Origin: Eledone cirrhosa | Taxonomy: Eukaryota | Assembly: GCA_964016885.1 (NCBI GenBank) | Contig: OZ024740.1 | Coordinates: 300,018,001-300,082,000, forward strand | Reading direction: 5' to 3' | DNA length: 64,000 nt | In this document: in pieces, positions 720-49,504 of the stretch | How positions within the stretch are numbered: position 1 is the stretch's first letter | Layout: each line of letters begins with the position of its first letter | Made by a program: the position numbers and the translations under genes | The notes under the pieces: model-generated | Database searches by the model: none | Seen by the model: the letters and a program-made list of their open reading frames with translations, nothing else | What the model was told of the DNA's origin: nothing

Positions 720-1548
720 TTCTTTATTAACCACAAGGGTTTACATAAAGTAGACATTAAGGACAGTGCAGGACAATACAGGACGGTACAAATGGGCATT
801 TCTGCGTGTAAAAAACAAAAACAGAAGATGTAACAAAAAAATAACAATGAAAAATTCCCCAATAGGGGGGAGAATTCGGAGGGACATTTGTGGAGAAAGC
901 CCAGTAAAAGGCCACAGTGACCCTGACCACCAAGGCAAGTGCCCTCTCCCAGTTTTCCACCTTTAATTTACAGATATATACTCAGAGTAGGCCCATTCAC
1001 TCGGGCCATTCTTGCTTTTCTCACCCATCTTTCAACAAAATGCTGGGAAGAGAGCACTTCCCTCTCTACTCTGATTTTCCTTTTCAAATGAAATTTGAAA
1101 AAGTCAATCAGAGCATCACCGAAGAGGTAAGTGCTCGTCTTCAGCCCTTTCGAACGTGTCCACCATACTATCTCTTTCGCCATGGCCACCAGACAGATAA
1201 AAACTGCCTGCCCTTCCCAGCTAAAGGAGGAGGGCGGGGCAATCCTCACGATGGACTCAGATGATAGCCGGATCCGTCCTACACGCGACAGCAGGTGTTC
1301 GACATAAACCCACAAGTCATCAATTTTCGGACACTGGACGAGTGCGTGCAGGACAGTATCGTCGCCCTGCGCGCATCTCGTACATGCCCGGCTGACGGCA
1401 CCTCCATGCCTGTAGAGTTTATCCAGAACTGGCAAGGCTCCTCGGTAGCACTTCCAGGCCAGAGATTTCTGTAAGTTGTCCATAGACCCTGGCCCGAAAG
1501 TTCTTCCGAAGAGATTGGTTAGTTGATTTTCGTCGACGCTTCCCAAGG
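720..1548 (-). mobile_element. 5'-truncated L1/Tx1-like LINE 3' end (zf-RVT-type C-terminal domain, 3' UTR, simple-repeat tail)
   Basis: ORF 968-1546 has W..YRGALPV...CTRC...DTVLHALVQC...W (CCHC motif downstream of RT in L1/Tx1 ORF2) and AKEIVWWTR; it is followed by a T-rich 3' UTR and a (TAT)n/(TAG)n/(CAG)n tract at ~622-718. Confidence 0.7.
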
Positions 1549-2221
1549 ATCTCCAGTTGATGTTAACTCTGTTTCCCAGGACTTCATAGTTTTGCCCAAC
1601 AACTGTCTGATGTTATCTGCCACCTTGAAGATCTCCAGGCTTTTGGTGATCCAAGAATGAGGCACCATGTCAAATGCCTTTTTGTAGTCTATATATCCCA
1701 TGGCAAGACTAGTGTGTCTCCTCTTGCAATTCCTCATTACCATCTTATCAATAAGTAACTGGTCCTTTGTACCATGTGACTTCTTTCGGCATCCTTTCTG
1801 TTCGTCCGGTAACAAGTTGTTTGTGTGGAGGTGATGGTAGATTTCCTCAGACATAATGCTTGTCAACAGTTTCCACATTACGGACAGACATGTGATAGGT
1901 CTATAGTTGGTAACATCATTACCCTTGATTCGGTCTTTCATTATCAGAACTGTGGTACCTTTTGTCAACCACTCTGGTACCTCACCTGACAACAAGCAGT
2001 CATTGAACATGGTTGTCAGTTTCGGGTGGAGGGATGTTATGTTTTTAATCCAATACCCCTGCACACCATCTGGGCCAGGTGATTTCCAGTTGGTTAGTTT
2101 TTTGGCCTGCCCCTTAAGAGTTTCAACTGTGATACTCAAATCAGTTTGTTGGTGTACCTGTTCACTGATCTCCTTCTGTACTGTCTCAATCCACACTGCC
2201 TGGTCATTATGTTTGACATCC
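1549..2221 (-). pseudogene. R4/Dong-type non-LTR retrotransposon RT fragment (second, divergent family)
   Basis: ORF 1519-2196: NWKSPGPDGVQGYWIK, NYRPITCLSVMWKLLT, EQKGCRK, KDQLLIDK, IDYKKAFDMVPHSW; truncated at both ends. Confidence 0.85.
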
Positions 2222-2226
2222 TTTTT

Positions 2227-2417
2227 GGTAGTATCGGTAGAGGGTCGGACGCCATGCTTTCCAGCATAGTTACGTCCCTTTACGATCTGAGTTCAAATCC
2301 CGCCGAGGTTGACTTTGCCTTTCATCCTTACGGGGTCGATAAAGTAAAGTACCAGTAAGGCCCTGGATAATTGCTGGCCTTGTGCCTAAAGAAGAAACAA
2401 TTATTATTATTATTATT
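2227..2417 (+). mobile_element. tRNA-derived SINE with (TTA)n tail
   Basis: A-box-like tggtagtatcgg, B-box gagttcaaatccc, body gcctttcatccttacggggtcgataaa..agtaccagt, (TTA)n tail; many copies in the window. Confidence 0.85.
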
Positions 2418-5400
2418 ACAGTTGCATTTATCTTGCTTTATGTTCATACGAGTTATCACCAAGTCACAACCAGTGACCTCAAGAGACAACAAGGTCCGCC
2501 ATGTTCAAGATAGAACATACATACTCACACATGCATCTTTAGTGTTTAGACTTGTGATGTACTTATATTGACAGAATCTTCCTTAGTATATGGGCAGTTC
2601 CCATTAGTACTATCTTTTGTATTTCTCCTATACGCGGGTTTCCTGGGATTTGCGATCAGTAATCAATAGACCCCTTAGGTATCATTCCCAGAGCGCCTAC
2701 AACCACTGGTATTGTTTTAGTTCTCAATTTCCACATTTTTCCAATTTCTATCTCCTGGTCCTTATACTTGCTCAATTTTTCAAATGTTTTTATAGATACA
2801 TTCTTGTCTATTGGAACAGACATATCAATTAGCAGGCATACCCTCTTTTTAAAGTCCTTCAATATTATATCAGGTCTATTTGCATCTATTTTTCGGTCTG
2901 TTTGGATGCTAAAGTTCCACAGGATTGATATGTGATCTTTTTGAAGTATGGGAGGTGGTTGATGCTCCCACCAATTCTTTTGATGGGGCAGGTCAAAATG
3001 CTTACACATTATCCAATGTATGTATTGTGCAGCTCTGTCATGCCTGTTTAGGTATTCGGTTAGAGCTATAGGACTGCACATTGAAATTATATGGTCAATG
3101 GTCTCTGGTTGTTTTTTGCATACACGGCATAATGGGCTGCATCCATTTTTTATTATGTTGGCTTGGTAATTTTTTATTGGGAGACACTGATCTTCTGCCG
3201 ATATAATCAGTCCTTCAGTCTCCGATTTCAGTCCAGAGGATGCCAACCACTGATGGGTTAAAGTTTTGTCAACATCAGGATTGTTAGCTCGCTCTGGGTA
3301 TTTTCCATACAGAGGCTTTTCTTGCCATTTCTTAGCCAGTTTCTGTAGCAGTTCTTTCTTTGCAGTTACTTTTACCTGCTTTGCTTTTTCTGTGTTTTCC
3401 ATTTCAGCAGTAAATGGGACTTCTGAAATTTGTAGTCCATTACTGTATCTTTGTGCATCTTTTGTAATGGAATATGATCTTTTGATGCTTTCGTGTTTCA
3501 AAACGAGTTTGATCATCCAATTATGTGATTCCCTTAGATATGTAGATAATCCAATTGTTGCAGTTTTCAACGCAATGTCTAACTGGATTAACCCACGTCC
3601 TCCTTCTTTCCTAGGGAGATATATTCTATCTATATCTGCTTTAGGGTGATGCATTCTGTGCATGGTTAAGAATTTTCGAATTTTTGTATCGAGCCTACGG
3701 ATCTCTGTGCTTGACCAGTTGATGACATTGTAACTGTAGGTTACTACTGGTATGGTAAGCGTGTTTATGGCATCGATCCTTGCATTCAATTCCGTTTTTA
3801 AGATTGCTCTCACTCTGCGGTAACATTCCTTCCTTATCCTTTCCCTCATTGTCGAGTGCTTGATTCCGTCTCCTTCACAAACACCTAGATATTTGTAAGT
3901 TTTTTCTTGATCAAGTTCTCTTATCACGTTCCCCCGATCAAGATTAATGTCTGAACTCTTCAGCAGCTTTCCTCTGGTGAACGTTGCTTTGGCGCATTTA
4001 TCTAGTCCAAACTCCATTTTAATGTCATCACTGAACTGCTTCACAGTGGATAATAGCCCTTGCAATTGTTCATCATTTTTTTGCAAATAGTTTCAGGTCA
4101 TCCATGTAGAACAGGTGATTAATGGTTTTGTCATAGACTTTATATCCATGTTTTGTTTCATTGAGCATTTTACTTAATGGTATAAGTGCGATGCAGAATA
4201 AAAGCGGTGATAAAGAGTCACCCTGAAAAATTCCACACTTAATATTAACCTCTTCAGCTTCCAGTGATTTTGTTTCACTATTCAAAAGGAGTGTCGTTTT
4301 CCATGTCTTCATACTGAATGACAAAAACCTCCTGACAACGGGGGATATTTTGAAAATCTCTAAACATTTTTCAATCCAACTGTGTGGCAAACTATCAAAT
4401 GCTTATTTATAATCTATCCAAGCAATCGATAGATTTTTGTGTCTATTATGACAATCTTCCAGTATCATATTGTTAACCAGAAGCTGATCCTTACAGCCAT
4501 ATGAGCCTCGTTTACACCCTTTCTGCTCAATGGGAAATAGGTCATTTGTTATCAGGTGGTCATATGTGTATTCAGTTATGACTGATGTTAAAATTTTATA
4601 CATTGTGGTCAAGCAAGTTATCGGTCTGTAATTTTTGGGATTGTTTGTCTCATCATTCTTCGGAAGCAGGAATGTAATGCCGTTAACTAGCCATGATGGT
4701 ATCTTTTCTGGCTCCTTAACTATTTCATTGTAAAGTTGGGCTAACAGCTCATGAGACTCTGTGAAGGCATTTATCCAAAAGTTTTGTATTTTGTCTTTTC
4801 CTGGGGATTTCCATTTGCTGGTTTTTCTTAGAGCCAAGCGCAACTGTTCAACTGTTATATTTTCCCATGTTTGTTCCTCAAGGTGAGCTGTATCTTTCAT
4901 TTGTCTGTCTATCCATGGGACATGTATGTTATGAACTTTTTCTTCGGCCCAGATCTTTTCCCAGAATTCTTGCACTTCCTCCTTGGGTGGTATTGATTTA
5001 GCAGTTATTGTTGACTTACCAATTTTTCTGTAGAAGTTTCTTTGGTTGTTTTTGAACATATTATTGTCCTTATAGAATCTAGATCGTTTTTCAAAGCGCC
5101 TTATACGAGCAGCTTTGGCCGACACTTTTTGCTTGATTATTTCTATCAGCATGTCTATGTCACATGTTGATTTTATACTGTACTTCTTTTTCAATTTTCT
5201 AAGTTTAGTTTGTTTAACATGTTCACCTACTTTATAGTTTGTTAAAATTTCTATGTCAGATCGGAGAAGGTTTATTTGGCGATTGATGTTCTCTTGCCAA
5301 GTAGATTTCTTGTGGGAATTCCTTTGTTTTTTCATCTTCACTCCACATAAGTGAGTGGTGACTCTAGTCGATGCATAATAGAGATGATTTAAATCAGTAA

Positions 5401-6305
5401 TGTTTAGTTTGTTTGTGATGATAATGTTTTTGAGAATTATGTTAGTCTTGTGTATTATCTTTTGGTTCTGTTTTGAGTTCTGGATCTTAGGGAGGGTGTC
5501 TCGTTGCCCCATGTCAGATTCTTTCATTTTCATCCATTCGATCATAATTTCATCCTTCAAGTTGGCAAGTTCATTCTCATTCATTTCTTTATCATTTACG
5601 ATCTCATTATTTTCATTTGGAGTTTCATCCTGAGCATGCACTCCCTCCACTTTTTCGATCCTTTCTTTAATTTTTTCTGTTGCCAGTGATTCCGCCCCAA
5701 CCCTGGGATTCGAAGTGTTACAGTTTACCTCGTTTTCACTGACACATGTTTCATTTTCCCCTCGCTGACTTTGTGCTAATAGCTTGATCTGATCAATTTC
5801 TATATTAGTTAGTAACTTTTTTCTTACAATATTTCTTCGTATATTGGCTAGTTTGTTGCTGTCAATATAGCCTCTTTTTTCGGGATGTTTCTTTTTCCAG
5901 TTGATATATGTCTGTTCTGTATTCGATGTATTTGATGGGTAGTACATGGCAGTGTAGAAAGCCTCAAGGACTTCTTTATTATCTTCCCTTGACCATTTTT
6001 CTCTATTTTTCTTTGGATTTCTTGGTGGTGAGCATGGAGGGCCAACAGTAGGAGTATTCCGGTTATGGGAGGTCTCCAGCTCCGAAGTGATGGGAAGGTT
6101 TGAACCATTAGCTAATTTTTCGACCCCAGTCTGGTTCCTCTCTGAGGGACGCGGCCCTTTTTTACCCGGGTGACGGCCGATCCGGTATGAGATTTTACCG
6201 CCATCCCGGTATTTCTTGGTCGCGGGGTTTTGATTTTGTTGTTTTTTTAAATTGTTATTATCATGAGTGGTTCCTTAATGTGAGCATTGCGTGGCTTAAG
6301 AATGA
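2418..6305 (-). mobile_element. Near full-length R4/Dong-clade non-LTR retrotransposon (RT + CCHC + restriction-like endonuclease), inactivated
   Basis: One ORF from ~6260 to 2563, split by a nonsense codon at ~4403 (IDYK*AFDSLPHSW) and frameshifts at ~4080 and ~2656; motifs KWKSPGKD, YRPITCL, GIFQGDSLSPLLF, HLFYMDDLKL, GGRGL, CRVC..ETIDHIISMC, RHD, RPDII..LIDMSVP..K..KY; the 3' end abuts (TAA)n. Confidence 0.93.
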
Positions 6306-7266: not shown

Positions 7267-7290
7267 ATATGGTTAAAAGTGTTCCATGTA

Positions 7291-7357
7291 TTTTATTATG
7301 CGCATTTCAAAAACAAATATCATCATGGGATGATATTTGCGTTCTCATCAGATAAAA
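7291..7357 (-). ncRNA. Type I minimal hammerhead ribozyme in the Naiad-like PLE terminal repeat
   Basis: Minus strand: ttttat-CTGATGA-gaacgcaaatatcatc(ccat)gatgatatttgtttt-t-GAAA-tgcgca-TA-ataaaa; stems I and II pair, stem III is palindromic. Confidence 0.85.
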
Positions 7358-10300
7358 TAGGGAGACATGATATGAAGCTTAAAAAGCCCTTGCTAGCAGT
7401 GAAGTGTTAAATCAATATACGAAAAATAAAATAAGATGGATATATGAGATTGGAAAAAAAAAAGACAGGAAGGGGGAAAGAAAAGGTAAGGAAGAGGAAG
7501 AAAGAATATAGATAGAAGAAAAAAAAATAATAAGGAAAGGATGACCGAGGAGGAATATAAGAAGGAAGGATGAGAGAGGAGATAATGAGTGAGAGAGAGA
7601 GAGATAACCTTTAATACTGAGAAACACTGTCTCACAGATAAAAATTATAGAAAAACCGTTGTAAGATAATACATAATTTAAAAAAATTAGAAATTAAAAG
7701 TTAATGAGGTTTATCAATGGTGATGCTAATGATTAAAGAAAAAGGAATTAAGAATACTAATTATTGAAGGGTTTAATAAGATGTGCGAAAAGGAATTTAT
7801 TAAAATGCATTATTAAAATAAAATATATTAAGAAGATAAGGTGAATGAAGATAAGGTTAATTGAATTATGAACTTAGAGGAATTAATTAGAGTCGAAGTT
7901 TGTTTCTATATATTGTAATAGGAAAAAGTAAATAATAGATTTAATACGAGCATGGAAGGAGAGAACAAAGAAGAAAAAATTCATGGAAGAAAAAATATAT
8001 AACGTCAAAAAAATATGTTTACAAAATTTTTCTAATGGTAATATTAAAAATAAAAATTTGTATGGCCGAGAATATAAGGAAAATGCTATAGTGAGTTATA
8101 AGATGAATTAAGAAGGAATTGAGAAGTAAAAGTTGCAGATTAAAGATTAGAAATTAAAAAAGAAGAAAATTAGGGGACCGCTAACGACATAATATGAGTA
8201 ATATTGTATAATATACTGAAATAAGGTAGAATGATGCTTATATTTGTAAAAAATATAAAAGCGTTTGAAAAAAAAAAGATTTTAAACTAATTAGGTAGTA
8301 AGATATTAGCTGTATACTTTATGGAAAGTTCTATGGGATTTATGCAAACAGAACGAAAATAAGTCCGTACGTCTATTTATTATAGAATTACAATTAGAGA
8401 TAATGCTAAATTTCTCCGCTAAACAGAGATTACATGTTCTGGATAGGAAAGAATTAAGGTAAGGACAGGCATTGCAAACGTGTGTCCAAGAATGTTGTAG
8501 TTAATATTTTTGTCCTTTAAGGACCATATGAGTTCTGAGAGTGGTGTGTTTGTTCTTTTAAGTTGGTATTTAAAAGAAGAATTGTGATTATAAAATCCTG
8601 CCTTAAAGGAAGTGGAAGTGGAACCAAAATAGGTAAAAGAATTAGTACCAGTTATAACCTTACATTCATGCACTAAATTTTTATCAAGACATTAGTTACT
8701 AAGAGGACATTTAGTTCTAACAGGGCAATTGCAATTACGATTACTGAAATTACCAGAGTTATTAGCAAGTGACCCAGTATTATTTATAGAAGGAGTTGAA
8801 TTGGAGAAGTTACTTATGATAGGTGCTAACATTTCCTGATTTAGATTGGTATTATGAACATTCGACAAAGTTACGTTTGACGTCGTATTTAAAATTACAG
8901 AATCTAGCCTAGAGTTCAGATTGACGTCCGGCTTACTATTGTTATTATTATGACGCTCAGTGTTGGATGGGTATGATTTATTACTTAATATTTTAGTATT
9001 ATGTTTTGAGATAATGTTAGCGATGGTGGAATAAGAGAATTTAATTGTTTGCTTATTAAAGATCTTAATATAAATATGAGGGAAGCATTTATCTAAGGCC
9101 CTAAAAAATAGTTTAGGAATATTACTAATAATAGATAGAGGAAAAGGAGCGTTGTACCATATCATATTTTTATATCTAGGTCTTTTCTTTATACTATTGG
9201 AATGCTTATAACTAACTATATTACTATAAGTTCCTCCATGATTGGTTTCTTTACTGTATTTAATTTTGTCAGGATAACCGGCCCTGGAAAGCGCATTGTT
9301 GTAATAATTGGCTTTAGTGTCAAAGATAAGTTTATTAGAAGATAGATTTGAGATTCCTTTTTCAACATTACTGTCTATAGCATTTTTAACGTTAATAGGG
9401 TGGTTAGATTTAAAATTAACATAATTTAGATTATCATTGTCTTTATGGTAAGGCTAATATAGGCCGGCGTCAAAATTAAAGATATATCCAGGAAATTAGC
9501 TAGTTTGACGTTTTTTTCAAATTCAATTTTTAGGTTATGGTGCTTAAATAGATCAAGTATATTATTTTTAATAATATTAAGGTTAACTAAGTTACAGTTT
9601 AAGACAGTAAAAAGAGAATCGTCACGATAAATTCCACCGCGAAGTTGAGGAATTTTCCGATTTAAAGAGTTCAAAATAAGGATTCCAACCAAGTCCGTCA
9701 ATTGCGCTGAATCCGACGAACCCATTGTGATATCAAAATTGTTGGAAGTATCAGCTCTAGTCCAATATTCGTTGTTGAATTCCAGGATAGTTGTTACTTG
9801 CGGTGAGAATGATGTACAATTCATCTGTCGTGATGTCAGAATATTTAAATGCAAAAGAGAGAGCGTTGTTGAGGAGTGAAGGCGAAATGGTAGAATAGTA
9901 ACTGGCAATGTCAAACTGAATACATTTTTGTTTGTTTTTATTATTCAGGTCATTGAACCAGTCGATTACATCAGATGTACCAATCCTTAAATTAGCACTC
10001 AACAGTTTATAGGACTGGAGTATAAATAATATAAAATAATTGCTCTATTTCTAACTTAAATTTATGGATTGGTACATCTGATGTAATTGACCGGTTCAAT
10101 GACCTGAATAATAAAAACAAAAGTATTAAAAGTTATCTCTCTCTCACGCATTTTCTCCTCCTCTCTCATCCTTCCTTCTTATACTACTGCTCCGTCATCC
10201 TTTCCTTATTATTATATATTTTTTCTTCTATCTATATTCTTTCTCCCTCTTCCTTACCTTTTCTTTCCCCATTCCTTTCCTTTTTTTCCAATCTCATATA

Positions 10301-10383
10301 TCCATCTTATTTTATTTTTCATATGTTGATTTAACACTTCACTCTTCGCAAGTGTTTTTTAAGCTTCATATCATGTCAGCCTT

Positions 10384-10450
10384 TTTTATCTGATGAGAAC
10401 GCAAATATCATCCCATGATGATATTTGTTTTTGAAATGCGCATAATAAAA
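10384..10450 (+). ncRNA. Type I minimal hammerhead ribozyme (inverted repeat copy)
   Basis: Same motif as 7291-7357 on the + strand; CTGATGA at 10390, GAAA at 10433. Confidence 0.85.
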
Positions 10451-10669: not shown

Positions 10670-10671
<2 letters not shown>

Positions 10672-10815
10672 CCTTTATGATCTGAGTTCAAATCCCGCCG
10701 AGGTTAACTTTGCCTTTCATCCTTACAGGGTCTATAAAAGAAAGTACCAGTAATACACTGGAATAATTGCTGGCCTTGTGCCAAAAGTAGAAACAATTAT
10801 TATTATTATTATTAT
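10670..10815 (+). mobile_element. 5'-truncated tRNA-derived SINE
   Basis: gagttcaaatcccgccgaggttaactttgcctttcatcc... followed by (TTA)n. Confidence 0.8.
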
Positions 10816-11072
10816 TAATATATATATATATATATATACAATATAAATAAATACACAGATACATGCGAATACATACATATACATGCATATACACACATAT
10901 ATCCCTGAATTTGTGTGGTGCCAACCTTAACCGTTGTTGTTCTATGATTAAAGGGACAAAATAATCTGAATGAATTAGATTGACTCTATATCAGAGCTAT
11001 ATATTACATTATAAAGAAAGAAGAAACATTAGACATAAACAAAAAAATATAAATACCCAATATTCCTCTACA

Positions 11073-11164
11073 TTCTCGACTGCACAGTTTCGTGGCTACT
11101 TTGAAAAAATACTACATCATAGAGATGCAGTATTTCTGTGAGGTTTGCCAACTTATCAAGAGAA
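11073..11164 (-). ncRNA. Hammerhead ribozyme, U3-A8 core variant
   Basis: Reverse complement of the motif at 11389-11480. Confidence 0.75.
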
Positions 11165-11388
11165 ATTTAAAGTTTCAAAATACGTCTGCAAGACGCGAGA
11201 CAGAACCCGTAAAGGCATAGGGGGAACTTATCACGTGATTGAGCGGTCAAGAAACAGAGTTAAGCCTCTTACAACCAAGAGAAAAATACCACAATGGCGG
11301 AGGGGTATTAATATCTAGGCTACAGACGAGGTGGCTAAGGAGGGCTAGAAGTGTAAATAGTGTAAGCTTTACAGCAGTAAATGAGGTA

Positions 11389-11480
11389 TTCTCTTGATAA
11401 GTTGGCAAACCTCACAGAAATACTGCATCTCTATGATGTAGTATTTTTGCAAAGTAGCCACGAAACTGTGCAGTCGAGAA
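11389..11480 (+). ncRNA. Hammerhead ribozyme, U3-A8 core variant with extended stem II
   Basis: ttctc-TTGATAA-gttggc...aaatactgcatc(tctat)gatgtagtattt...gccac-GAAA-ctgtgcag-TC-gagaa; perfect 5-bp stem I, GUC triplet. Confidence 0.78.
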
Positions 11481-11976
11481 GTAGAGGATATTGGGTATTT
11501 AAAGTGTTTTTATTTATGTCTAATGTTTCTTCATTTTTATAATGTATTATATAGCTCTGATATAGAGTCAATCTAATTCATTCAGATTATTTTGTCCCTA
11601 TTAATCATAGAGCAACAACGGTTATGTTTGGCACTATACACATTCAGGGATATATGTGTGTATATGCATGTATATGTATGTATTCGCATGTATCTGTGTA
11701 TTTCTTTATATTGTTTATAACTCCTTACGTTAGAGTAACCACGGAAGAATAGTGATTGCTGTCAAGCTTACACTATTTACACTTCTAGCCCTCCTTAGCC
11801 ACCTCGTCTGTAGCCTAGATATTAATACCCCCTCCACCATTGTGGTATTTTTTTCTTGGTTGTAAGAGGCTTAACTCTGTTTCTTCATCGCTGTATCACG
11901 TGATAGGTTCCCCCTCCGCCTTCGGGGTTCTCTCTCTCGCATCATGCAGACATATTTTGAAACTGTAAATGAGGTA

Positions 11977-12069
11977 TCCTCTTGATAAGTTGGCAAACCT
12001 CACAGAAATACTGCATCTCTATGATGTAGTGTTTTTTGCAAAGCAGCCACGAAACTGTGCAGTCGAGAA
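11977..12069 (+). ncRNA. Hammerhead ribozyme, U3-A8 core variant (tandem copy)
   Basis: tcctc-TTGATAA...GAAA-ctgtgcag-TC-gagaa. Confidence 0.75.
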
Positions 12070-12136
12070 AGTAGAGGAATATTGGGTATATATATTTTTT
12101 GTATTTATGTCTAATGTTTCTTCTTTCTTTATAATG

Positions 12137-12220
<84 letters not shown>

Positions 12221-12892: not shown

Positions 12893-14307
12893 TTGTGTAT
12901 ATATATATATATACTCGAATTTTCTCTTCTCTACAGCGTAGAGTAGATAGCAGACACTGAAGAAATATATTGTTCTATTTCTATTGCATTTCAAGACAGA
13001 ATTCTGAGGCGCCCAATATCTCTTTTGCATCTTTCGCGTTTCCACATTTGCAAAAGCGGTGTTTACGGATAAATAACACTATTCACACGTTGTTAGTAGC
13101 GTCCCCTCCTCTTGGCAACGATTTATATCAGGAGCCAAGTGGTCTGAGAAATGTCGGCAATCAAATGTAGCATTTCCCTTTAAAATTAACTTTTACATTT
13201 ATGAAATTAGGATAATATCTTTTCCCTAAACATTATTTTGTTCTTTTCTTGTTATTTTCGATTCCGTGAAAAGGCAGTCACTAAATTCCTTCTCACCTGT
13301 ATAATTGAAAATGTTGTCATTATAGATTCAGAGAAGAAATCCAATTCTTTACTTCATGCGAAATCATTGTATCATTTTTCAAGATTGCTATCGCTATTGT
13401 TTCTTCTGCTAATTGAAAAGTAACGTTTTATCATTTCTTACTTCAAATGGCATATTCTGATGTCCTTTTTGGTTTATATTTCAACAAGTTTATATTAAAA
13501 AAAGTGGCTCATATTCCACTTAAATAGTTTTATCATAAAAGCAAAATTATCTGCACGTTTTATAGCAGGCAGACATTTACTTTGAAACAAATGGAAAGTT
13601 CATAAGATATGAAAATAAGTCTCTATTTAGCTTTTTTAACTCTGTCATTAATGTGATGAGACATAACTGAAGAACAGTGGATGATAGTAAAATAAGTTGT
13701 TTGCATTAGTTTGAGTTCTTTACCCTTTCTGATTTTAGTGGAAAACACATCATAAATAGATGGAAGTCTGGAAAACTTTACCTACTTCATTTACAAAGCG
13801 TTACTCTATAATCTGTGTAAACAAATATATCGATATAAAAAAAGAACACTTGCATATCCCATGTGCAAGTATTTGTTTTTGTTTCCTTAATCAATGTTTC
13901 ATCTGCTACAACATTTGAAATATTTTTACCGTTTCTCATAAAACCACAAATTAAATTTTACATTAGTTTGGGAGGGAATTCATACTAATAGACAAAAAGA
14001 AAAAGTATTCATATAAAACTAGATGCCTTTTAAACGGAAAAAATGAAACGAAATTTCATTTCCCACTCTTAGTACGACTGTTAGTTAAATATAAGTATGT
14101 ATACGTACATACATATATGTATACAGACGTACAGTAGTATGTATATATATATATATATACATACATGCACACATATATATATATGTACGTATGGATTCAC
14201 CGAACATTTATTATAATGCTCGGTGTGTTTGTAAACAAACATCCCGTATTAAGCCGTAGTGTCTAGCAACCATCGTTGCGCGTTTGTTCAACACTGACAA
14301 AGGAACG

Positions 14308-14344
14308 CTGTACTAGTTTCAAACTTATTAGCTATCGTCAGCAA
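14308..14344 (-). ncRNA. Type I minimal hammerhead ribozyme (437-bp family)
   Basis: Minus strand: ttg-CTGACGA-tagct(aata)agttt-GAAA-ctag-TA-cag. Confidence 0.75.
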
Positions 14345-14575
14345 CCTATACCTTCCTGCCAGTATGATTGAACGTCTGAAAGTAGATACTTTCCTTATGC
14401 ATATTATCGCCTGAGCAGCCTAATTTGCATATCGAGTGGTTAAATCGGCCGGATGCACCGAAAACGATAAACGGAAAAATGAAACGAAATTTCATTTCCC
14501 ACTCTTAGTACGGCTGTTACTTAAATATAAGTATGTATACGTACATACATATATATATATACAGACGTACAGTAG

Positions 14576-14610
<35 letters not shown>

Positions 14611-14613
<3 letters not shown>

Positions 14614-15220
14614 AGGTCACCACTTGGTGCTACTGGTAACATGTATCCCAGTACAACCTGTTTCATGGTCGGGTCGTTGGCGACTAAACTGGCAACCCCA
14701 CCAAGGTTTCTTGGTGAGGAGGGTGACTTTGGACATCCTGCAGGACTAAAAACAAAACCTGTCAAAGGGCAAAGGAGCTCTTAAGAGTCAATGGCCATCC
14801 AAAATCACTGGGAGAGATGACCCCTTAGCCTTTGTCAAGGCAGAATTCTAGGAGAAGGAAAACTCTGATATAACACCTGCAACCCTGATGGTATCCAATG
14901 ATGTTGACTTGTTCTTCTTTTTGGTAAATATCATCTTGGTTAAGAGAGTGGGACTGGCTTTGTGCAGTGCCTTTGCTCACTATAAAAGCTTCACGGCACA
15001 GGCATTGCTTTATATCTGGAGATCTCTCTGCACTTGCCGTCACATGGTACCATGGGCCCAGCACTATGTGTCAATAATTGTCACAAGTGTAGTGTTTGTA
15101 CCAGAGTTTTCAAGTCGCTGGCTGGACTAAAAAGTCACACTCGTTCAGCGCATCGGTAGGGGTTCTCCTACATGGATATATAGTAGTGGCCGTACTCGAA
15201 AACGAGTTGGCAGCCACCAT
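14611..15220 (+). mobile_element. Bipartite RTE-derived non-autonomous retroelement (~610 bp), copy 1
   Basis: The 5' part resembles an RTE 5' UTR (ggagaaggaaaactctga); the 3' part encodes a C2H2 remnant CSVCTRVFKSLAGLKSHTRSAHR* typical of the RTE ORF2 C-terminus; near-identical copies at 19078-19597 and 30022-30632; sits in a (TA)n tract. Confidence 0.75.
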
Positions 15221-15379
15221 ATATATATATACGTACATGCACACATATATATATGTACGTATTGTATGTACGTATACATACTTATATTTAAGTAACAGCC
15301 GTACTAAGAGTGGGAAATGAAATTTCGTTTCATTTTTTCCGTTTATCGTTTTCGGTTTCGGCCGGTTAACCCACTCGAT

Positions 15380-15387
15380 ATGCAAAT
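15380..15387 (+). promoter_or_regulatory. Octamer motif ATGCAAAT conserved in the 437-bp family
   Basis: Also at 14423-14430 (-), 16447, 16879, 38621 and 49068; 88-89 nt upstream of the hammerhead core wherever a core follows; function inferred only. Confidence 0.45.
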
Positions 15388-15464
15388 TAGGCTGCTCAGG
15401 CGTTAATATGCATAAGGTAAGTATATACTTTCAGACGTTCAATCATCTGGAAGGAAGGTATACT

Positions 15465-15501
15465 CTGCTGACGATAGCTAATAAGCTTGAAACTAGTACA
15501 G
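15465..15501 (+). ncRNA. Type I minimal hammerhead ribozyme (437-bp family)
   Basis: ctg-CTGACGA-tagct(aata)agctt-GAAA-ctag-TA-cag. Confidence 0.82.
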
Positions 15502-15794
15502 CGTTCCGTTGTCAGTGTTGAACAAACGAGCAACGATGGTTGCTAGACACTACGGCTTAATACGGGATGTTTGTTTACAAACACACCGAACATTATAATA
15601 AATGTTCGGTGAATCCATACGTACATATATATATGTGTGCATGTATATATATATATATACATACTACTGTACGTCTGTATACATATATGTATGTACGTAT
15701 ACATACTTATATTAGATGCCTTTTAATATAATAAAACATTAGCACTATTTTTACGATTGAGATAGTCGACACTCTTATTGTTTTCATTATAAGA

Positions 15795-16161: not shown

Positions 16162-16246
<85 letters not shown>

Positions 16247-16248
<2 letters not shown>

Positions 16249-16940
16249 GGAAAAAATGAAACAAAATCTCATTTCTCACTCTTAATACGGCTGTTACTTA
16301 AATATAAGTATGTATACGTACATACATATATGTATACAGACGTACAGTAGTATGTATATATATATAGATACATACCCATATATATATATATGTACGTATG
16401 GATTTACCGAGCAATTCGGTGCGCCCGGCCGATTAACTCACCCGATATGCAAATTAGGCTGCTCAGCCGTTAATATGCATAAGGAAAGTATATACTTTCA
16501 GACGTTCAATCATCTGGAAGGAAGGTATACAGTGCTGAGAATTATTAATAAGCTTGAAACTAGTACATCGTTCCTTTGTCAGTGTTGAACAAAAGGGCAA
16601 TGATGGTTGCTAAACACTGTACGGCTTAATTCGGGATGTTTGTTTACAGACAAACCGAGCATTATAATAAATGCTCGGTAAATCTGTAGGTACATATATA
16701 TATGTGTGTATGTATGTATGTATATATATACATACTACTGTACGTCTGTATACATATATGTATGTACGTATACATACTTATATTTATGTAACAGCCTTAC
16801 TAAGAGTGAGAAATGGAATTTCGTTTCATTTTTTCCATTTATCGTTTTCGGTGCGCCCCGCCGATTAACTCACTCCATATGCAAATTAGGCTGCTCAGCC
16901 GTTAATATGCATAATTAGGCTGCTCAGCCGTTAATATGCA
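16247..16940. repeat. 437-bp family locus: short inverted piece (16247-16412) plus ~1.2 direct units; degenerate hammerhead at 16532-16568
   Basis: atgcaaattaggctgctcagcc at 16447 and 16879 (432-bp period); core mutated to CTGAGAA. Confidence 0.8.
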
Positions 16941-17435
16941 TCTGAAGCCAACTATCATGTTTTCGTCGATATCATATTGCTAATATAAGGATGTCTTATA
17001 TTGTAACAGAATCTCAACGACACCGAGGACAAGTATATTCATTTAACTGGCTACAATACTTGCCCTATATTTAATTCACCCAAACCTAAACATCAAACAC
17101 AATTTGGATACTGGCAAGATCTCAACTACTCAGAATGTAAAAGAACGCTATAAAATAAATCGCGCAGTTTGCCGTAAAAGTTTTGGCGATGCGCCTAATT
17201 CAATGACAAAAAAATTACGGAAAATGTAAATACAGTATGACATAAAATGATTGGGACCGTATATAATTTAATGACGAAATATTTTTGAGTGAAATAACTT
17301 TAGTAAAGCTATCACACAACGTAGAATATTAGAGATGTTTTAAATTAACTAGAATCATGGATTTGATAGGCTATATGAGCGTTTGAAATATTCGAAAATG
17401 ACACCAGCTATTTCATAAAGAGGAAAACGTGGCTC

Positions 17436-17699: not shown

Positions 17700-17887
17700 G
17701 GTTTGTTGGTTCACCACTGGATAGAACTGGTCATTCTGTATAGTCAATCTCGATGTCATATTATGGAGAGCACTCAACATAATGCAACTCACCTGTCTTC
17801 GTTTGTGTTGTTGGTGGTGCGAGTACGGAGTTAATTATTATAAAATAACAGGAGGCTGGACTGGTGTAATTCCTTAAAAGTTTTATT

Positions 17888-17945
17888 ATACTATGATCAT
17901 TTCAATGACCGGGTTCAGTATGAATCCGGTGACATCATCAGGTAT
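17888..17945 (-). ncRNA. Type I minimal hammerhead ribozyme
   Basis: Minus strand: atac-CTGATGA-tgtcaccggattca(tac)tgaacccggtcatt-GAAA-tgatca-TA-gtat. Confidence 0.8.
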
Positions 17946-18070
17946 TCGAAATATAACAAAGGACTTCAAGGCGGCTGACCGGGATAGAAGCTGCTAAAAT
18001 TTCGGTAGCCCTCATGTCTGCTTTTCAGCCCCATGAAATTTGTTTATTATATTTCTTTGTTATATTTCGA

Positions 18071-18128
18071 ATACCTGATGATGTCACAGGATTCATACTG
18101 AACCCGGTCATTGAAATGATCATAGTAT
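18071..18128 (+). ncRNA. Type I minimal hammerhead ribozyme
   Basis: atac-CTGATGA-...-GAAA-tgatca-TA-gtat; palindromic stem III. Confidence 0.8.
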
Positions 18129-18185
18129 AATAAACCTTTTAAATAATTACACTAGTCCAGCCTTCTGTTATTTTATAATATATAT

Positions 18186-18570: not shown

Positions 18571-18626
18571 ACTGCTATATATATTTCGATGATAGCCATT
18601 AAATGGCTATGACCTCATCAGGCAGT
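18571..18626 (-). ncRNA. Type I minimal hammerhead ribozyme (separate family)
   Basis: Minus strand: actgc-CTGATGA-ggtcatagccat(tta)atggctatcatc-GAAA-tatata-TA-gcagt; perfect 5-bp stem I. Confidence 0.83.
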
Positions 18627-24998: not shown

Positions 24999-25087
24999 GA
25001 ATTTTCAATTTCTGCTTGACCGGCAACTGCTCTGTATAATCAGTTCCTGATTATTTACTAGAATTCTATAAGAACCAAACATCCATG

Positions 25088-25181
25088 ATTTCAGCAAACA
25101 GGAGGAGGAGTTGGCTTTGATAAGCATCAATAAATGCGAAACAAGGCCTTGTCAGCTTTATCTCCCCCTGTTTGCTGAAAT
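25088..25181 (+). ncRNA. Hammerhead ribozyme, U3-A8 core variant with long extended stem I
   Basis: atttcagcaaacagg..ggct-TTGATAA-gcat(caataa)atgc-GAAA-caaggccttg-TC-agct..cctgtttgctgaaat; GUC triplet, palindromic stem III. Confidence 0.85.
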
Positions 25182-25345
25182 TAAAGTAAGTGAGTCTGTC
25201 ACTACTCTAAAACAATAGCATAAGGTCTTCGAAATGCTTTTAATTAAGCATACAGTGTATTGCAAAATACATTATATATACATTCATATATATATATATA
25301 CATATATATATATATGTGTGTGTGTGTGTGTCTGTGTGTATATAT

Positions 25346-30815: not shown

Positions 30816-32309
30816 AAATCTACCAAACTCGTATCATGGACTGAGTGCTCTAATACTACGGATATAAGCCTCCAGTGTTCTACTATTATATATCTATATA
30901 TATGTGTGTGTGCCTCTGTGTGTCTGGGTTTATGTGTATATATATATATATGTGTTCTCTGTAATATGGAACTTTTCCAAATTTTAGATTACAACAAAAT
31001 TCTTCTTAACAGTAAAATTGAAAAAACTATTTTTTGTCGACATAATTCGGCGACTAAATTTAAGAACTTTAGACCAGCTTTATTCCAACTTATCTATTCC
31101 ATAACCCGGTTTGTACCACTTGGATCTATTATGATATTACATTATCAACATCATCATCATTATAATTATAATTATAATTATAATTGTCATCATCTATCAA
31201 AGTACAACATCACAACCTCTTATATTTACATTCTTATTTTATATATCTCTATTTTTCACTCTTTATCTTCCTATTTCTCTCCCTAAATTTATTTAATCTG
31301 TCATTTTATTTTATCATATAATATAACTTAAAACTAATTAATTATCTTATTTATTAAAATAACCAATACACACATAAATATATGTAACATTATCATATTT
31401 TCACCATTTTTTCATATATTTCTTATATATCTATTTTTATTTTTATTTACATTTATTCATGTATTAACGTTTATTCATTTATTTGTCCCTCTATTCTTCT
31501 CTCTATCCTGCGTTATTTTTACTTATGTTTGTCTCTCCTCTATCTGCCATCATATTCTATATATCTTCCTCTCTTTATATTTCTATCTATAATAATTTCT
31601 CCTTTTCTTCTTCTTTCTCTTTTTCTTTTTCCTTCTTCCTCTTTCTCCTTCCTTTCCTTTCTTTCTTTACTGTATCTATCTCCCTTTCTTCCTCCTTTTC
31701 TCTATATTTTTATTATTAATATTATTATTGATGATGTATTTTAAATTTGTAATTTTGCTGGTTACATATATATTCTTTTAACAATTTCTGAAGATCTAAT
31801 AGAGTTAACATCGTATTTAAAATTAAGTGGCAGTGCTTTTAGTGTTCAGCAATTTTTAGACAACTCTATGAGTGAAACAATTGTTAGACTGAAAATAAAT
31901 CCCCTTTTTTGTACTGTTGACCATGTTATTCTCCACGTTTTCACTTGCATATATATATAACGAAGGAAATGTGGTAAGGAACCAGGTGGACCATAACGCA
32001 CCAAAGTACTCAATACTTAGGGTAGTAGAGTAATTCTTTTTTTCTCTCTCAGTACTTTTTATAGTTTTACCCTTCATTGTTCTACTTACCGTTTCGACTC
32101 CCCCCCCCCCCCCCAGTATCCTCTTTGACCTCACGCCCAGCTGTAGCCGGCACTACCAACGCATGAATGGGTCTACTCCACCTCCTCTCCCTTTTTCTCC
32201 TACCGGCAGGTTTAGCTACCCCTTCCACATCAATTTGCCATCACAGATTTACTACTAACTTGTGATATGACCAATCCTGGTGATTATATCTTTGACCATA
32301 TATGGAATT

Positions 32310-32403
32310 ACCCCTTGATAAGCTCGGCTATTTAAATACCAGAATAAATTTCCATTCAGTCCAGAATTAGCCGTCGAAACGGCTTGAGCTCAGCCGTCGG
32401 GGT
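32310..32403 (+). ncRNA. Hammerhead ribozyme, U3-A8 core variant with stable stem III
   Basis: acccc-TTGATAA-gctcggcta...tagccgtc-GAAA-cggct(tgagctc)agccg-TC-ggggt. Confidence 0.85.
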
Positions 32404-32453
32404 CTTACTTGTTCCTATATATATATATATATATGTTTATATACGTATGTTTA

Positions 32454-38466: not shown

Positions 38467-38911
38467 TGCTACTCTACGTCTGTATACATATATGCATGTA
38501 CGTATACATACATACTTACATTTAAGTAAGTGCCATACAACGAGTGAGAAATGAAATTTCGTTTTCATATGTTTTCAACTTATCGTTTTCTGTATGCCTG
38601 ACCGATTTAACTCACTCAATATGCAAATTAGGCTGCTCAGCAGTTAATTTTACTAAGGAAAGTATATACTTTCGAACGTTCAACTATCTGGCAGATGGCT
38701 AAACGGTGCTGATGATAGCTAACAAGCTTGAAACTAGTTCATCGTTCCTGTGTCAGTGTTGAACAAAAAGGTGACGTGGTTGCCTTAACACCGTATGGCA
38801 TAAATTCAGGCTGTTCAGTTTGTTTACAAACGAACAAAGCGGCGTTATAATAAGCGTCCGCTAAACTGATGCGTGCATATATGTATGTGTACCTGTATGT
38901 ATATATGTATA

Positions 38912-39239: not shown

Positions 39240-39448
39240 CGTTTCAGAATTTGTTTAGCAAGATTCTTTATATGAAAACGTCTGTTGAAAGCGATATTAT
39301 TATACTTTGGGAGGGTCATGTTGTCAATAAGAAACACACGCACCAGGTGCTTTTAACTTCAATTTATTATAATAAATTTATAAATTTAGGAATTCATAAA
39401 TTTCCGGTTGGTTGGTTGGTTCCACAACCAGATGATTGTTTATATATT

Positions 39449-39491
39449 GTCAAAGTTCTTTCGTCACACATTCTGTGACCTCTTCAGTGAC
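39449..39491 (-). ncRNA. Minimal hammerhead motif in the inverted PLE repeat
   Basis: Reverse complement of 44266-44308. Confidence 0.65.
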
Positions 39492-42400
39492 TGGGGATTC
39501 TTTTCTTTGTTTTTGGTGCCTCTCCTTTGTTCTGTCCTACGCCATCTTGTTTTTTGTGTGTGTTGTGTGCTTAGTTTGCGCATGTGTTACATCCGGGTGT
39601 CCGTGTGTGTTTATATTCGTTTATTTATTTGTTTATTTGCATGTTACTGGTTGGTTGTTTGTTCTATGTGCGTGTGTGTTTTCATTTTGTCCTTACTTGT
39701 AAGTTGTGATGTTGCTGTTCTATTCATGTATTCTATTTAATTTTGGTTGGAGTTCATTTATGTTTATTGCCTCTGTGATTTGTCTAAACATTGCGTCTTT
39801 TCTGTGTGCAGATTCTATATTTATTTCTATGTTCTCTAATTTACCCTTATGTTCTATTTTAGCATGTTGGTAGAGTACAGATAATTCTTTACTAACTTGA
39901 AGGTCTCGCCAGTGTTCATTTATCCGTTCCCCTATACTACGAGCTGTCTCACCTATGTACACTATATTTTTATCTCTACATTGTCCTTCAGTACATCTTA
40001 TGCTATATACTACATTTCTAGTTTTACAGTTAATATGGAGGCTTAATTTACAGATTATACATTTCTTATCCCTACAGGGAGGTCTTTGAAAAGGGTATGC
40101 ATTGCTAATAAGTGTTTTTATGGAGGTACCTGGTCTTTCTACTATCTTAATATTGAGTTTATGTTTATCTAGGGCCCTTCTAAATTTGTAAGCTAATTCA
40201 CCTCTAGGGGTTGTATCGATGAACATTACACTCTGGTATTTATTGCTATCATACCATGAGTTTATTCTATTAGCCTTATTCCTTGTTCTTTCTATTCTAT
40301 TCCAAAATTTTGTCTTATACAAGGGACAGGTCCCATTTGTGTCATTATTTACCGTTTATTCCCATTTGGTTCTGGCTCCTCTATATACTCTGATTTTATC
40401 TCTCTGATTCTAAACAGAGAACTGCATACGGTGGATGAAGTGTTGTATGTGTCTCTCTATTCTTTGGGGTTGCACATGCGGGACACGTTTCTCCTCACTC
40501 ATACCAAATCCGCAATCAGTATGTTGATTTTGGTATTGTCCGAAACAGCTGAGTTTCGGTGGATTAGATATTTGGAAGTCATGGGTTTGGCATAATGGGA
40601 ATGGAGGATTTGTTATTTGTTATTAATGGTATCTAACCAGAGCTCTGTGTATAGTAGAGGAAATCCATGGTTGGGGTGTTTGCTTGGGTAGTCTATATAA
40701 CTCAAGAAAAACATAAGCGTAACCTAATACAAGAAATATCTAAGATCACCACACCAAGATAAAAAATAATATTTATAAGCCTTATATGTCCTGAAGAAAA
40801 GTACATTGTTCTAGAAGGTGACAAGCACTTTAACAAGAAACTAAAGTAGCTCAAACAGATAAAACTAAATCAAGATACTTTAGAGAATATCCATAGATAT
40901 CGCGACAAAATTTTCGGTATAAATATGGCCGACATCTCATTAACAGATGAATTCAACAACAACAACACAAATATATACGGCAATACTACGGTCGACTCTG
41001 ATGAATTATCAGTATTACAACTACCACCTAAGTATGCCACATTTAATAAGGTAAATATGATTAAATGCTTGTCAGAAATAGAAAAATCATTTACAAAATT
41101 ACGTTGGAGCCTCAAAGACACAAACAAAAACAAAAGTAACAACATACGCACACAAACACACATATACAACACACAACCCAACAACAACAGACACACAGAC
41201 ACAAACAACAATAACAACAACACACACATCAAAAATAATAACATACTCCGAAACAACAACAACAGACACGCAGACACAAACAACAATAACAACACACACA
41301 ACAATAATAACATACACGGAGAGAACAACAACACACATCCACAACAGCACACATCAACAACAAAAACAACAACACACACACATTCAATGCCTCTCACCAC
41401 CACCACAATCTTAACAAACACACAGACACAGAAAACAGGTAAAGACAGTAGCATAGAAATAAGGGAAGGTAATAGGATTGAAAGGAGAAGGGAGACTATG
41501 GACAGAGAAAATAACCAGGACGAACACACAGACACACAAAATAGAGTATAATAACAATGAGCCAGAGGAAAGAGAGAGGAGTAATAATGAGAGACATAGA
41601 AACAACCATGAGGCTGTTGGTGGAAATAGAAATAGAAACAACACAACTAACAATAACAATAGCACTAGTACACATAAAGCAGCAGCCTGGAACTCTACTT
41701 TTTATAATCCCTCCGATAAGTCGTTCGACCTGCGACGAGTCCACGCCATGACTTTAGATTTTAACAAACGCACGCAATTGCCGTCGCAGGTCGATGAACA
41801 AACAGAAGCACAATTTAGTATAGCTAGATCTAAACTTAGAAATATTATAGAACAATATAGCAAGAAGCATAATAGAATGGAGGCCCAGCAACTGGGAGAA
41901 AAATCTGCAAATGGCTTGCGTAAGCTCATGCAGCGCTCGCGTAATGGAGAGATAGCATGCTTTCCAACAGACAAGCCTGGCAGAATGTCGGTTGACAGTC
42001 TGCCAAACTACATCCAGGAAATGCAACCCCACATCACTAACACAAGAGAAGTAACACCACAAGAGCATGAGGATAGAGAAAAAGCCCTCAATGCCCATAT
42101 GATGATGTGGACAAATATAATGCAGCCCAAATAAAGGACTGCCAACAACTTCCAGGCCTGGAACAATGACGTGCCAGCGTTGTATGGGCTTCGAAAAGAC
42201 CATAAAACGAGCAGTGACCCTGTCACAGGACCACCAACACGGGCAGTCTGTAGAGCTAACATTGCTAATAACTACAGACTGTCCTACTTCCTCTCCCTGA
42301 TCGTACGCCACATCAATGAAATGTCCCCAGATGTATGTGACAGCACGGAGGACCTCCTCAGCAGAATCGGCGAGAGTAACCGATCTAGGGACCTAACAAA

Positions 42401-44265
42401 GTGCATAATGGTAGTATGGATGTTGTGTCCCTGTATCCATCTATTGACGTGGATTTTGCAGTGGAGAAATGCGTAGAAATGATCAGTGAGAGAAATGTTG
42501 AATTCCGTGGGATTGATACCAGTGAGCTGGGACTCCTACTTAAACTTACCTATAGCAATAATTATCTAGATACATATGAGCTTAGCAACCTGTGCCCTAC
42601 AAGACCAGCGAGAGGCAGACCACCTACCATTACCTCAATGGCTAGGAAAACCCACACAGATAGATGGAACGGGTGGACCAGAGACATACGGACCCCCGAA
42701 AACCACGATGAACTAAAGTAAATGATTGCACATGCGGTGGGGGCCAGCAAAAAATTAACCCTTAAGGAACATATGTTGAGATTTAATGGAAAAACATAAG
42801 CCCAAGAGTAGGGAGCAGCCATTGCAGGGGACTTAGCTAACCTATTTATGGTATGGTGGGACAGTAGACTTAAACTTAAACTTAAACTTAAAGATAAATT
42901 AGATGACCGCTCAACCCTGATAATGTACTCTCGCTACGTTGATGATATAAACATCGTAGTAAAAATACCCCCACTAGAGAACAGTCAGGAATTAAAGAAA
43001 AACACAATGGAAAGCATCCAGCAAAGAGCTAACTCCATCCACCAGAGTATTAGAGTTACTATAGACTACCCGAGCAAACACCCCAACCATCGATTACCTA
43101 TACTAGACACAGAGCTCTGGTTAGATACCATTAATAACAAAAAACAAATCCTCCATTCCCATTATGCCAAACTCATGACTTCCAAATATCTGATCCACCG
43201 AAAGTCAGCTGTTTCGGACCATACCAAAATCAACATACTGATTGCGGATTTGGTACGAGTGATGAGAAACGTGTCCTGCATGTGCAACCCCAAATAACTA
43301 GAGAGATACATACAACACTTCATCCACCGTATGCAGTTCTCTGGTTACAACCAGAGAGATAAAATCAGAGTATATAGAGGAGCCAGAACCAAATGGGAAA
43401 AAATGGTAAATAATTACACAAATGGGACCTGCCCTAGTATAGGAGCAAATTTTGGTATAGAATAGAAAGAACTAGGAATAAGGCTAATAGAATAAACTCA
43501 TGGTATGATAGCAATAAATACCAGAGTGTAATGTTCATCAATACAACCCCTAGAGGTGAATTAGCTTACAAATTTAGAAGGGCCCTAGATAAATATAAAC
43601 TCAATATTAAGATAGTAGAAAGACCAGGTACCTCCATAAAAACACTTATTAGCAATACATACACTTTTCAAAAACCTCCCTGTATAGATAAGAAATGTAT
43701 AATCTGTAAATTAAGCCCCTATATTAACTGTAAAACTAGAAATGTAGTATATAGCATCAGATGTACTGAAGGACAATGTAGAGATAAAAATATACTGTAC
43801 ATAGGTGAGACAGCTCGTAGTATAGGGGTACGGATAAATGAACACTGGCGACACCTTCAAGATAGTAAAGAATCATCTGTACTCTACCAACATGCTAAAA
43901 TAGAACATAAGGGTAAATTAGAGAACATAGAAATAAAAATAGAATCTGCACACAGAAAAGACGCAATGTTTAGACAAATCACAGTTGCAATAAACATAAA
44001 TGAACTCGAACCAAAATTAAATAGAAAACATGAATTGGACAGCAACATCACAACTTACAAGTAAGGACAAAATGAAAACACACACGCACATAGAACAAAC
44101 AACCAACCAGTAACATGCAAATAAACAAATAAATAAACGAATATAAACACACACGGACACCCGGATGTAACACATGCGCAAACTAAGCACACAACACACA
44201 CACAAAAACAAGATGGCATAGGACAGAACAAAGGAGAGGCACAAAAACAAAGAAAATAATCCCCA

Positions 44266-44308
44266 GTCACTGAAGAGGTCACAGAATGTGTGACGAAAGA
44301 ACTTTGAC
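44266..44308 (+). ncRNA. Minimal hammerhead motif in the PLE 3' terminal repeat
   Basis: gtca-CTGAAGA-ggtcaca(gaatg)tgtgac-GAAA-gaac-TT-tgac; very short stem III. Confidence 0.68.
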
Positions 44309-44577
44309 AATATATAAACAGTCATCTGGTTGTGGAACGAACCAACCAACCAACCGGAAATTTATAAATTCCTGAATTTATAAATTTATTATAATAAATT
44401 GAAGTGAAAGCTACTGGTGCGTGTGTTTCTTATTGGCAACATGTCCCTCCCAAAATATAACAATGTATATATGTATATATAATCATATCTTCGTGTACAG
44501 ATATTATTGCATACACAATAACAAAATATGAACAAATTTTTTATTTCACGAGGCTCGACAGCAGCAAAAACAACATC

Positions 44578-48657: not shown

Positions 48658-48816
48658 GTATGACAGCTAATAAGCTAGAAACTAGTTCATCGTCCCTTTG
48701 TCAGTGTTGACCAAAGGGCAACGATGTTTGCCGAACACTGTACAGCTAATAATTCGAGCTGTTTGTTTACAAACAAACCGAGCATTATAATAAATGTTCG
48801 GTAAACCCATACGTAC

Positions 48817-48894
<78 letters not shown>

Positions 48895-49312
48895 ATGTAT
48901 GTATGTGCATGTATGTATGTATATACATACTAGTGCACGTCTGGATAATATATGTATGTACGTATACATACTTATATTTAAGTATCAGCCGTACCAAGAG
49001 TGAGAAATGAAATTTCATTTTTTCCATTTATCGTTTTCGGTACACCCGGCCGACTAACTCACTCGATATGCAAATTAGGTTGCTCAACCATTAATATGCA
49101 TAAGGAAAGTACATACTTTCAAACGTTCAATCGACTTACAGGAAGGTATACGGTGCTGATGACAGCTAATAAGCTAGAAACTAGATCAACGTTCCTTTGT
49201 CAGTGTTGACCAAAAGGGCAACGATGGTTGCCGAACACTGTACGGCTAATAATTCGGGATGGTTGTTTACAAACATATCGAGCATTATAATAAATGTTCG
49301 GTCAACCCATAC

Positions 49313-49355
<43 letters not shown>

Positions 49356-49425: not shown

Positions 49426-49504
<79 letters not shown>

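Follow-up and report, generated by a model that had tools for sequence, protein, structure and literature searches.

Non-LTR retrozymes of metazoans are non-coding tandem units of low GC content, each with one type I hammerhead, which are dispersed through the genome as monomers to multimers and co-exist with Penelope-like elements (PLEs), according to the available text of PMC7229834 and of a 2026 preprint (bioRxiv 10.64898/2026.07.22.740005). The circles studied in invertebrates measure 170-400 nt, and the range given in the preprint is 51-972 bp; in the same preprint, only one of nine Xenopus retrozyme dimers cleaved in vitro. Hammerheads in which the core pair 3-8 is U-A are found in about 1,300 matches in Schistosoma mansoni, tied to Cercyon PLEs, where they have a stem I of 4-5 bp, a palindromic stem III suited to dimers, and occur in opposite-strand pairs 100-700 bp apart (PMC4209133). 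Natural U3-A8 covariants, whose activity in vitro had been proven earlier, are also reported in PMC3088659; the core variant is already published.

PLEs of the Hydra clade (PMC8557442) and the anole Poseidon element PAc (PMC11167929) form partial tandems with a 5'-truncated inverted copy, have (TA)n targets, two reverse transcriptase (RT) start sites and a 'tail' at one end only, usually 30-40 bp long; the preference for (TA)n is documented for the Hydra clade in PMC8557442. In vitro, PAc uses two internal RT start sites and extends both strands, hammerhead mutants are without effect on insertion, and uncut RNA is the main substrate (PMC11167929). The sole in vitro study of a PLE found the ribozyme dispensable, and a circular template made by the hammerhead had been proposed for PLEs in 2014 (PMC4209133); for retrozymes, copying from an RNA circle was put forward in 2020 (PMC7229834).

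The locus described here lies in a stretch of 64,000 nucleotides (the window; contig OZ024740.1 of Eledone cirrhosa, positions 300,018,001 to 300,082,000), and is read as a two-armed insertion of a ~590-nt repeat, likely a non-LTR retrozyme, whose predicted self-cleaved, circular monomer was likely copied by a Hydra-clade PLE protein into a (TA)n tract. A probability of roughly 0.7 is assigned to this reading. The unit shares with the three systems the features listed above, and departs from each of them. It is longer than the studied invertebrate circles, albeit inside the range of the preprint, and differs from metazoan retrozymes in its U3-A8 core and in the long extension of stem II; no description of its strict two-end inverted architecture was found for retrozymes in the available text of PMC7229834 and of the 2026 preprint. 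Unlike the Cercyon hammerheads, as far as these are described in PMC4209133, it is devoid of an ORF, forms multimers of its own, has a 10-nt palindrome as stem III and no unpaired base between A9 and G10.1. Unlike the Hydra-clade and Poseidon PLEs, as presented in the available text of the sources cited for them, it encodes no protein, its tail measures 166 nt, and the presence of one end of each kind, together with the origin of both arms from a single template, could be counted.

Three U3-A8 type I hammerhead motifs are found at the locus, two on the + strand and one on a diverging arm on the - strand, with UUGAUAA cores beginning at 11394 (+), 11982 (+) and 11159 (-), and a 3-8 pair which is U-A, not C-G. 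Each core is followed by stem II (G-C, U-A, a bulge, GGC/GCC), a hairpin of 13-15 bp, GAAA, ACUGUGCAGU, C17 and stem I. Cuts are predicted after 11475, 12064 and 11078 (-). Hammerheads 1 (11389-11480, +), supported by motif scan and covariation, and 3 (11073-11164, -), identified by motif scan, have a stem I of 5 bp. Hammerhead 2 (11977-12069, +; motif scan) carries tcctc instead of ttctc, which produces a C.A mismatch in stem I (3 bp, mismatch, 1 bp). An earlier reading of the sequence only had reported the three motifs here, with the two + strand cuts and a third copy head to head on the - strand; its ttctc, given for all three copies, fails for copy 2.

The cores of the two + strand hammerheads are spaced by 588 nt, and the predicted cuts delimit a monomer of 589 nt (11476-12064, +), predicted to form a circle; its first nucleotide, 11476, was taken as position 1 of the unit. 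The monomer is non-coding, all three sense frames being full of stops. Self-BLAST and mapping onto the unit resolved the locus into a forward arm (11377-12145, +), made of unit positions 490-589, 1-589 and 1-78, and an inverted arm (10833-11376, -), which runs from 11376 to 10833 through positions 282-589 and 1-244. At 11376|11377 the arms are joined 5'-to-5', and each of the outer ends enters (TA)n: the short end (+78) a (TA)40 tract at 12139-12219, the long end (+244) a tract at 10818-10838, beside a SINE-like repeat (10671-10799) whose TTA tail it adjoins. The stretch between the two end sites (+78 = 11553, +244 = 11719) constitutes the 166-nt 'tail' (11554-11719, +), which contains two conserved hairpins and is read through in the forward arm. 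The mapping of the two arms ruled out a plain dimer as the layout of the array. It agrees, together with the stops in the frames, with the retrozyme-like, non-coding unit in tandem-plus-inversion layout that had been proposed from sequence. The insertion is of PLE type, with a partial tandem, an inverted 5'-truncated copy, a tail at one end and a microsatellite target.

The overlapping segments of this copy differ at 10/177, 18/297 and 13/242 sites (5.4-6.1%), so that the insertion is old enough for decay, visible as the stem I mismatch in hammerhead 2 and as G.U pairs in stem III. Ten variants are common to all overlapping segments, while 36 are confined to one segment and represent later changes. 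A scan with Rfam at gathering thresholds gave no match anywhere in the window. The observation is real, and the copy is a decayed one from a large lineage of probable non-LTR retrozymes, of which both the class and the core variant were already known.

The size of the lineage was evaluated on the whole genome, 3.0 Gb of DNA in which microsatellites abound. It contains an exact 26-mer of the motif 73 times and the reversed control not once (0); with a looser U3-A8 pattern the count is 7,931, compared with 99 for the control; the motif is therefore not due to chance, and the genome copy number, suggested earlier as a check, turns out to be high. Ninety-six of 100 among the matches listed for the looser pattern fall in the ~590-nt lineage, as judged by eye, and most belong to a young sister subfamily of 591 nt, about 71% identical to the unit of the window and colinear with it through intermediates. 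Searching with the unit itself returned 1,968 candidates, and the 40 that were scored are 85-91% identical to it and spread over many contigs; for a 23-mer typical of none but the exact sequence, taken from the older subfamilies, 348 matches were counted (control 0). The family is dispersed, multi-copy and below 50% GC, and its genomic multimers, sampled through DNA search, carry up to five hammerheads per arm in relatives of the window copy. With some 7,900 motif matches, it could supply Eledone cirrhosa with a considerable amount of circular RNA. No publication on the ~590-nt family was listed in searches of the openly accessible literature on octopus retrozymes and cephalopod hammerheads.

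Conservation of the ribozyme was evaluated on 39 aligned motifs, drawn from all subfamilies. All 39 keep U3-A8, and the set displays the hammerhead core (N3UGAN-N8A with the 3-8 pair, GAA, A15.1-U16.1, H17) and three stems, each 91-97% paired, with 93.7% of stem cells pairing overall. Two-sided changes occur in stem I (U-A/U-G/C-G), in stem II (U-A/C-G) and in the palindrome of stem III. In comparison with 500 shuffles, three of five covariation measures beat all of them and two did not, the counts being inflated by relatedness. Stem III is a perfect palindrome in 138/164 non-redundant motifs, with three main forms (96, 31 and 10 motifs) related by paired differences; the form in the window copy retains self-pairing via G.U. 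In folding calculations these words form homodimers of -12 to -17 kcal/mol and no stable monomer hairpin, which fits a hammerhead acting as a dimer, as in PLEs and amphibian retrozymes. Self-cleavage is predicted from covariation and folding.

The monomer is a structured molecule, with a z score for the circular fold of -4.5 for the window copy and -7.7 for the young subfamily, as might be expected of a viroid-like RNA that replicates from RNA to RNA and integrates only occasionally. This possibility is extremely improbable: a viroid-like or HDV-like replicon has a rod-like fold and ribozymes in both polarities, whereas here the monomer is about 61% paired and branched, a scan of its minus strand found no hammerhead core, and integration is massive and follows the rules of PLEs.

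Alternatively, the copies might be 5'-truncated remains of a coding PLE, and the unit its normal pseudo-LTR. The end signature and the type of hammerhead are those of PLE termini, and another U3-A8 motif of the window, at 32315, is precisely of this kind, forming part of a coding element's 3' region. Seventy loci were inspected, 30 picked by the unit and 40 by the hammerhead alone (out of roughly 60 places), with 4-5 kb of upstream sequence. None of them has a coding element joined to the unit, and in particular no ORF with RT and GIY-YIG lies between repeats: the copies extending upstream continue into a preceding unit, or stop at the inversion or in the flank, never reaching an ORF, and none is found inside arms having up to five junctions. 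Hydra-type fragments occur near several loci; in the seven checked, (TA)n or unrelated DNA intervenes. A pseudo-LTR is thus largely refuted for this lineage and very improbable, and the association with PLE ORFs, which would have told against the sequence-only reading, is absent from the loci examined.

The same collection was used to map the ends of the insertions, relative to the cut. In the 70 older-subfamily loci 114 ends were mapped, 57 of which lie at +78, 49 at +244 and 8 elsewhere; insertions end in (TA)n. Two-armed insertions nearly always pair a short with a long end: 29/30 do so in the older subfamilies, the window locus included (15 more have an unclassifiable end), as do all 33 classifiable ones among 71 loci of the young subfamily (2 more being unclassifiable). 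Overall, one end of each kind is present in 62/63 classifiable two-armed insertions (p=7e-18 against 50%), the exception being one older locus with two short ends. Such a layout is the one known from PLEs, and it agrees with the two internal start sites and the extension of both strands seen in PAc. In the consensus fold, the 166-nt tail delimited by the two sites forms conserved hairpins with paired changes. No publication on the one-of-each rule was listed in searches of the openly accessible literature on Penelope twin priming and inversion, and, from 2021 onwards, on Penelope-like circular RNA and rolling reverse transcription.

The sequences of the arms bear on the nature of the template. 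The two arms of an insertion, compared in 40 young loci, differ from each other at 55/13,416 sites (0.41%), as opposed to 2.1% between loci, and 71/74 minority variants fixed in one arm are present in the opposite arm too, only 3/74 being absent there. Among 24 full units, the mean number of changes is 1.7 within loci (23 pairs) and 11.6 between loci (253 pairs). One locus, L101, contains six full units on two arms, all with its private variants. In a position-ordered sample, the number of arms declines with the number of junctions as 32, 18, 4, 2, 1, and arms reach five laps. The window copy, with its 10 shared and 36 single-segment variants, conforms to this picture. A circular monomer is inferred because of this array structure, that is, because of the laps and the shared variants, which a circle copied processively would explain most simply. 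Every hammerhead of the family already carries the junction from 589 to 1 in the genome; reads across it, which had been suggested as a check, therefore do not show a circle.

Two other origins of the multimers were considered. The unit could be a non-autonomous passenger of PLEs, copied from an uncut linear multimer, or from a linear monomer if synthesis jumps between templates; the hammerhead would then only trim the ends, and a circle would be superfluous. The anole PLE, which in vitro uses mainly uncut RNA, sets a precedent for this, genomic multimers exist which could be read through, and both the end rule and the variants shared by the arms are compatible with it. Units copied in this way cannot exceed the number in their source, yet 5' truncation is usual, so that the number must be regenerated; moreover, the private variants in all six full units of L101 need a single-monomer bottleneck, and through about 30% divergence the period remains that of the cut-to-cut monomer. 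A linear template is, on balance, unlikely. In the second alternative, a route proposed in the available text of the 2026 preprint, reverse transcription gives only the first 1-1.5 units, and the multimers are a later product of unequal crossover or slippage between partial repeats, as in minisatellites. Partial tandem repeats do permit an expansion of exact period, but in young arrays, on both arms, the differences amount to 0-2 changes, the fall-off of arm lengths is geometric, and a coding element of 3.5 kb, described below, has the multi-unit plus inverted form too. This makes expansion after insertion distinctly improbable, and a circular monomer, copied for a variable number of laps, is retained as the likely template.

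Clusters of sense-strand A>G changes, mostly after U, are common to all units of two loci (L101:1199-5775 and L113:1382-2501). Counting variants present in all segments of a locus, A>G exceeds T>C by 10 to 2 in the first 46 loci. The excess failed to replicate in 25 further loci (0 A>G, 4 T>C; pooled 8 vs 6, p=0.12), a set picked by likeness to L101 and containing few variants. The signal comes mostly from L101 and L113, and a reading as RNA editing remains only a lead; some templates may carry A-to-I edits later fixed in the genome.

The earlier proposal that a U3-A8 core recurs in dissimilar families was borne out by the two other motifs in the window, which belong to separate high-copy families. 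The motif at 25117 (25050-25270) is a single copy of a separate, young, retrozyme-like U3-A8 family with a tandem unit of ~319 nt, for which 2,017 candidates were found, 98-100% identical, with ends near +16 and +132. The motif at 32315 (32200-32410) lies towards the 3' end of an abundant, coding Hydra-type PLE, whose U3-A8 hammerhead it represents. Many copies of this young PLE family are 95-97% identical in protein and have open frames of about 784 aa. It includes the loci L145, L195 and L196, the last two with a tandem array having a period of 3,531 bp, multi-unit and with an inverted arm. Their element contains RWR, DKT and CxCX5C motifs, a C-terminal GIY-YIG-like segment and a U3-A8 hammerhead; its inverted arm stops at +97, the opposite arm at +17. 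Its motifs match those of the Hydra clade; Pfam gave no name to the Hydra fragment, and named the PLE fragments of the window weakly.

The U3-A8 Hydra element and the ~590-nt unit have in common the type of core, the base of stem II, the target and the end rule. Comparison of the unit with two sampled Hydra families, found by protein, revealed no DNA homology beyond chance or simple repeats. Because of this, a Hydra-clade PLE protein is only a candidate driver of the unit; Neptune-type PLEs occur in the window as well. The U3-A8 core is common in this genome. The suggestion that a rare core marks a lineage-wide U3-A8 clade was overstated: the core is published, no DNA homology beyond chance was found between the unit and the U3-A8 Hydra element, and the 437-bp family, with CUGACGA, and the other PLE termini in the window have canonical cores.

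Fixed ends, one end of each kind, template variants common to both arms, arms of several laps, covarying stems and the lack of an attached ORF can be read from the genomic sequences, and frame the cycle proposed here. Cleavage, the circle, the ligase and the identity of the driver are the parts of it that we infer. A transcript spanning two hammerheads would fold as a dimer through the palindromic stem III, and the monomer would be cut out and closed into a circle by a host ligase. The PLE protein would nick both strands of a (TA)n tract, and one 3' end would prime at +78, the other at +244, on one RNA; each copy would circle the RNA for a random distance, and the two cDNA ends would finally be joined 5'-to-5'.

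In a broader form, to which even odds are given, the unit would be a natural minimal PLE substrate: an RNA circle made by the ribozyme, to which a protein dimer binds, with synthesis primed at two fixed sites by the two strands of one (TA)n cut and running repeatedly round the circle in both arms. If this is true, a single mechanism accounts for the partial tandems, the inversions and the one-sided tails of PLEs. The model of a circle with two primers can be tested directly, since the 590-nt template with its two mapped start sites, the (TA)n target and a candidate protein that is intact are found together in one genome.

Several other repeats were observed in the window. At 7289-10450, the - strand carries a Hydra-type PLE in decay, whose inverted termini have canonical CUGAUGA hammerheads (7289-7359, -, and 10384-10450, +); one of its ends is short, the other lies about 130 nt past the cut, and in its stem II hairpin it is similar to the 589-nt unit. 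Two degenerate PLEs with RT, C-terminal GIY-YIG fragments and inverted termini occupy 39400-44350 and 49500-54330, canonical hammerheads being located at 39453-39487 and 44270-44304. Within 17836-18180, canonical hammerheads form an inverted pair (17892-17941, -, and 18075-18124, +); one more, on its own at 18571-18626 (-), matches Hydra-type termini. The 437-bp family, which has a minimal canonical CUGACGA hammerhead and a CUAG palindrome, is present at 14020-15700, 16240-16950, 38530-38870 and 48660-49320, one copy being interrupted by another repeat (14611-15218). A tandem repeat of ~518 bp, with an inner repeat of 129 bp and no hammerhead found, extends over 58709-59672, and ORF fragments of a non-LTR retrotransposon lie on the - strand at 968-6274. 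Outside the window, one SINE-like repeat is inserted at one site of the ~590-nt unit, with duplication of positions 111-125, in three loci (L034:4280-4466, L060:4418-4607, L068:4380-4569); it is absent from the other arm of L060, and the three cases may represent independent insertions at a preferred site.
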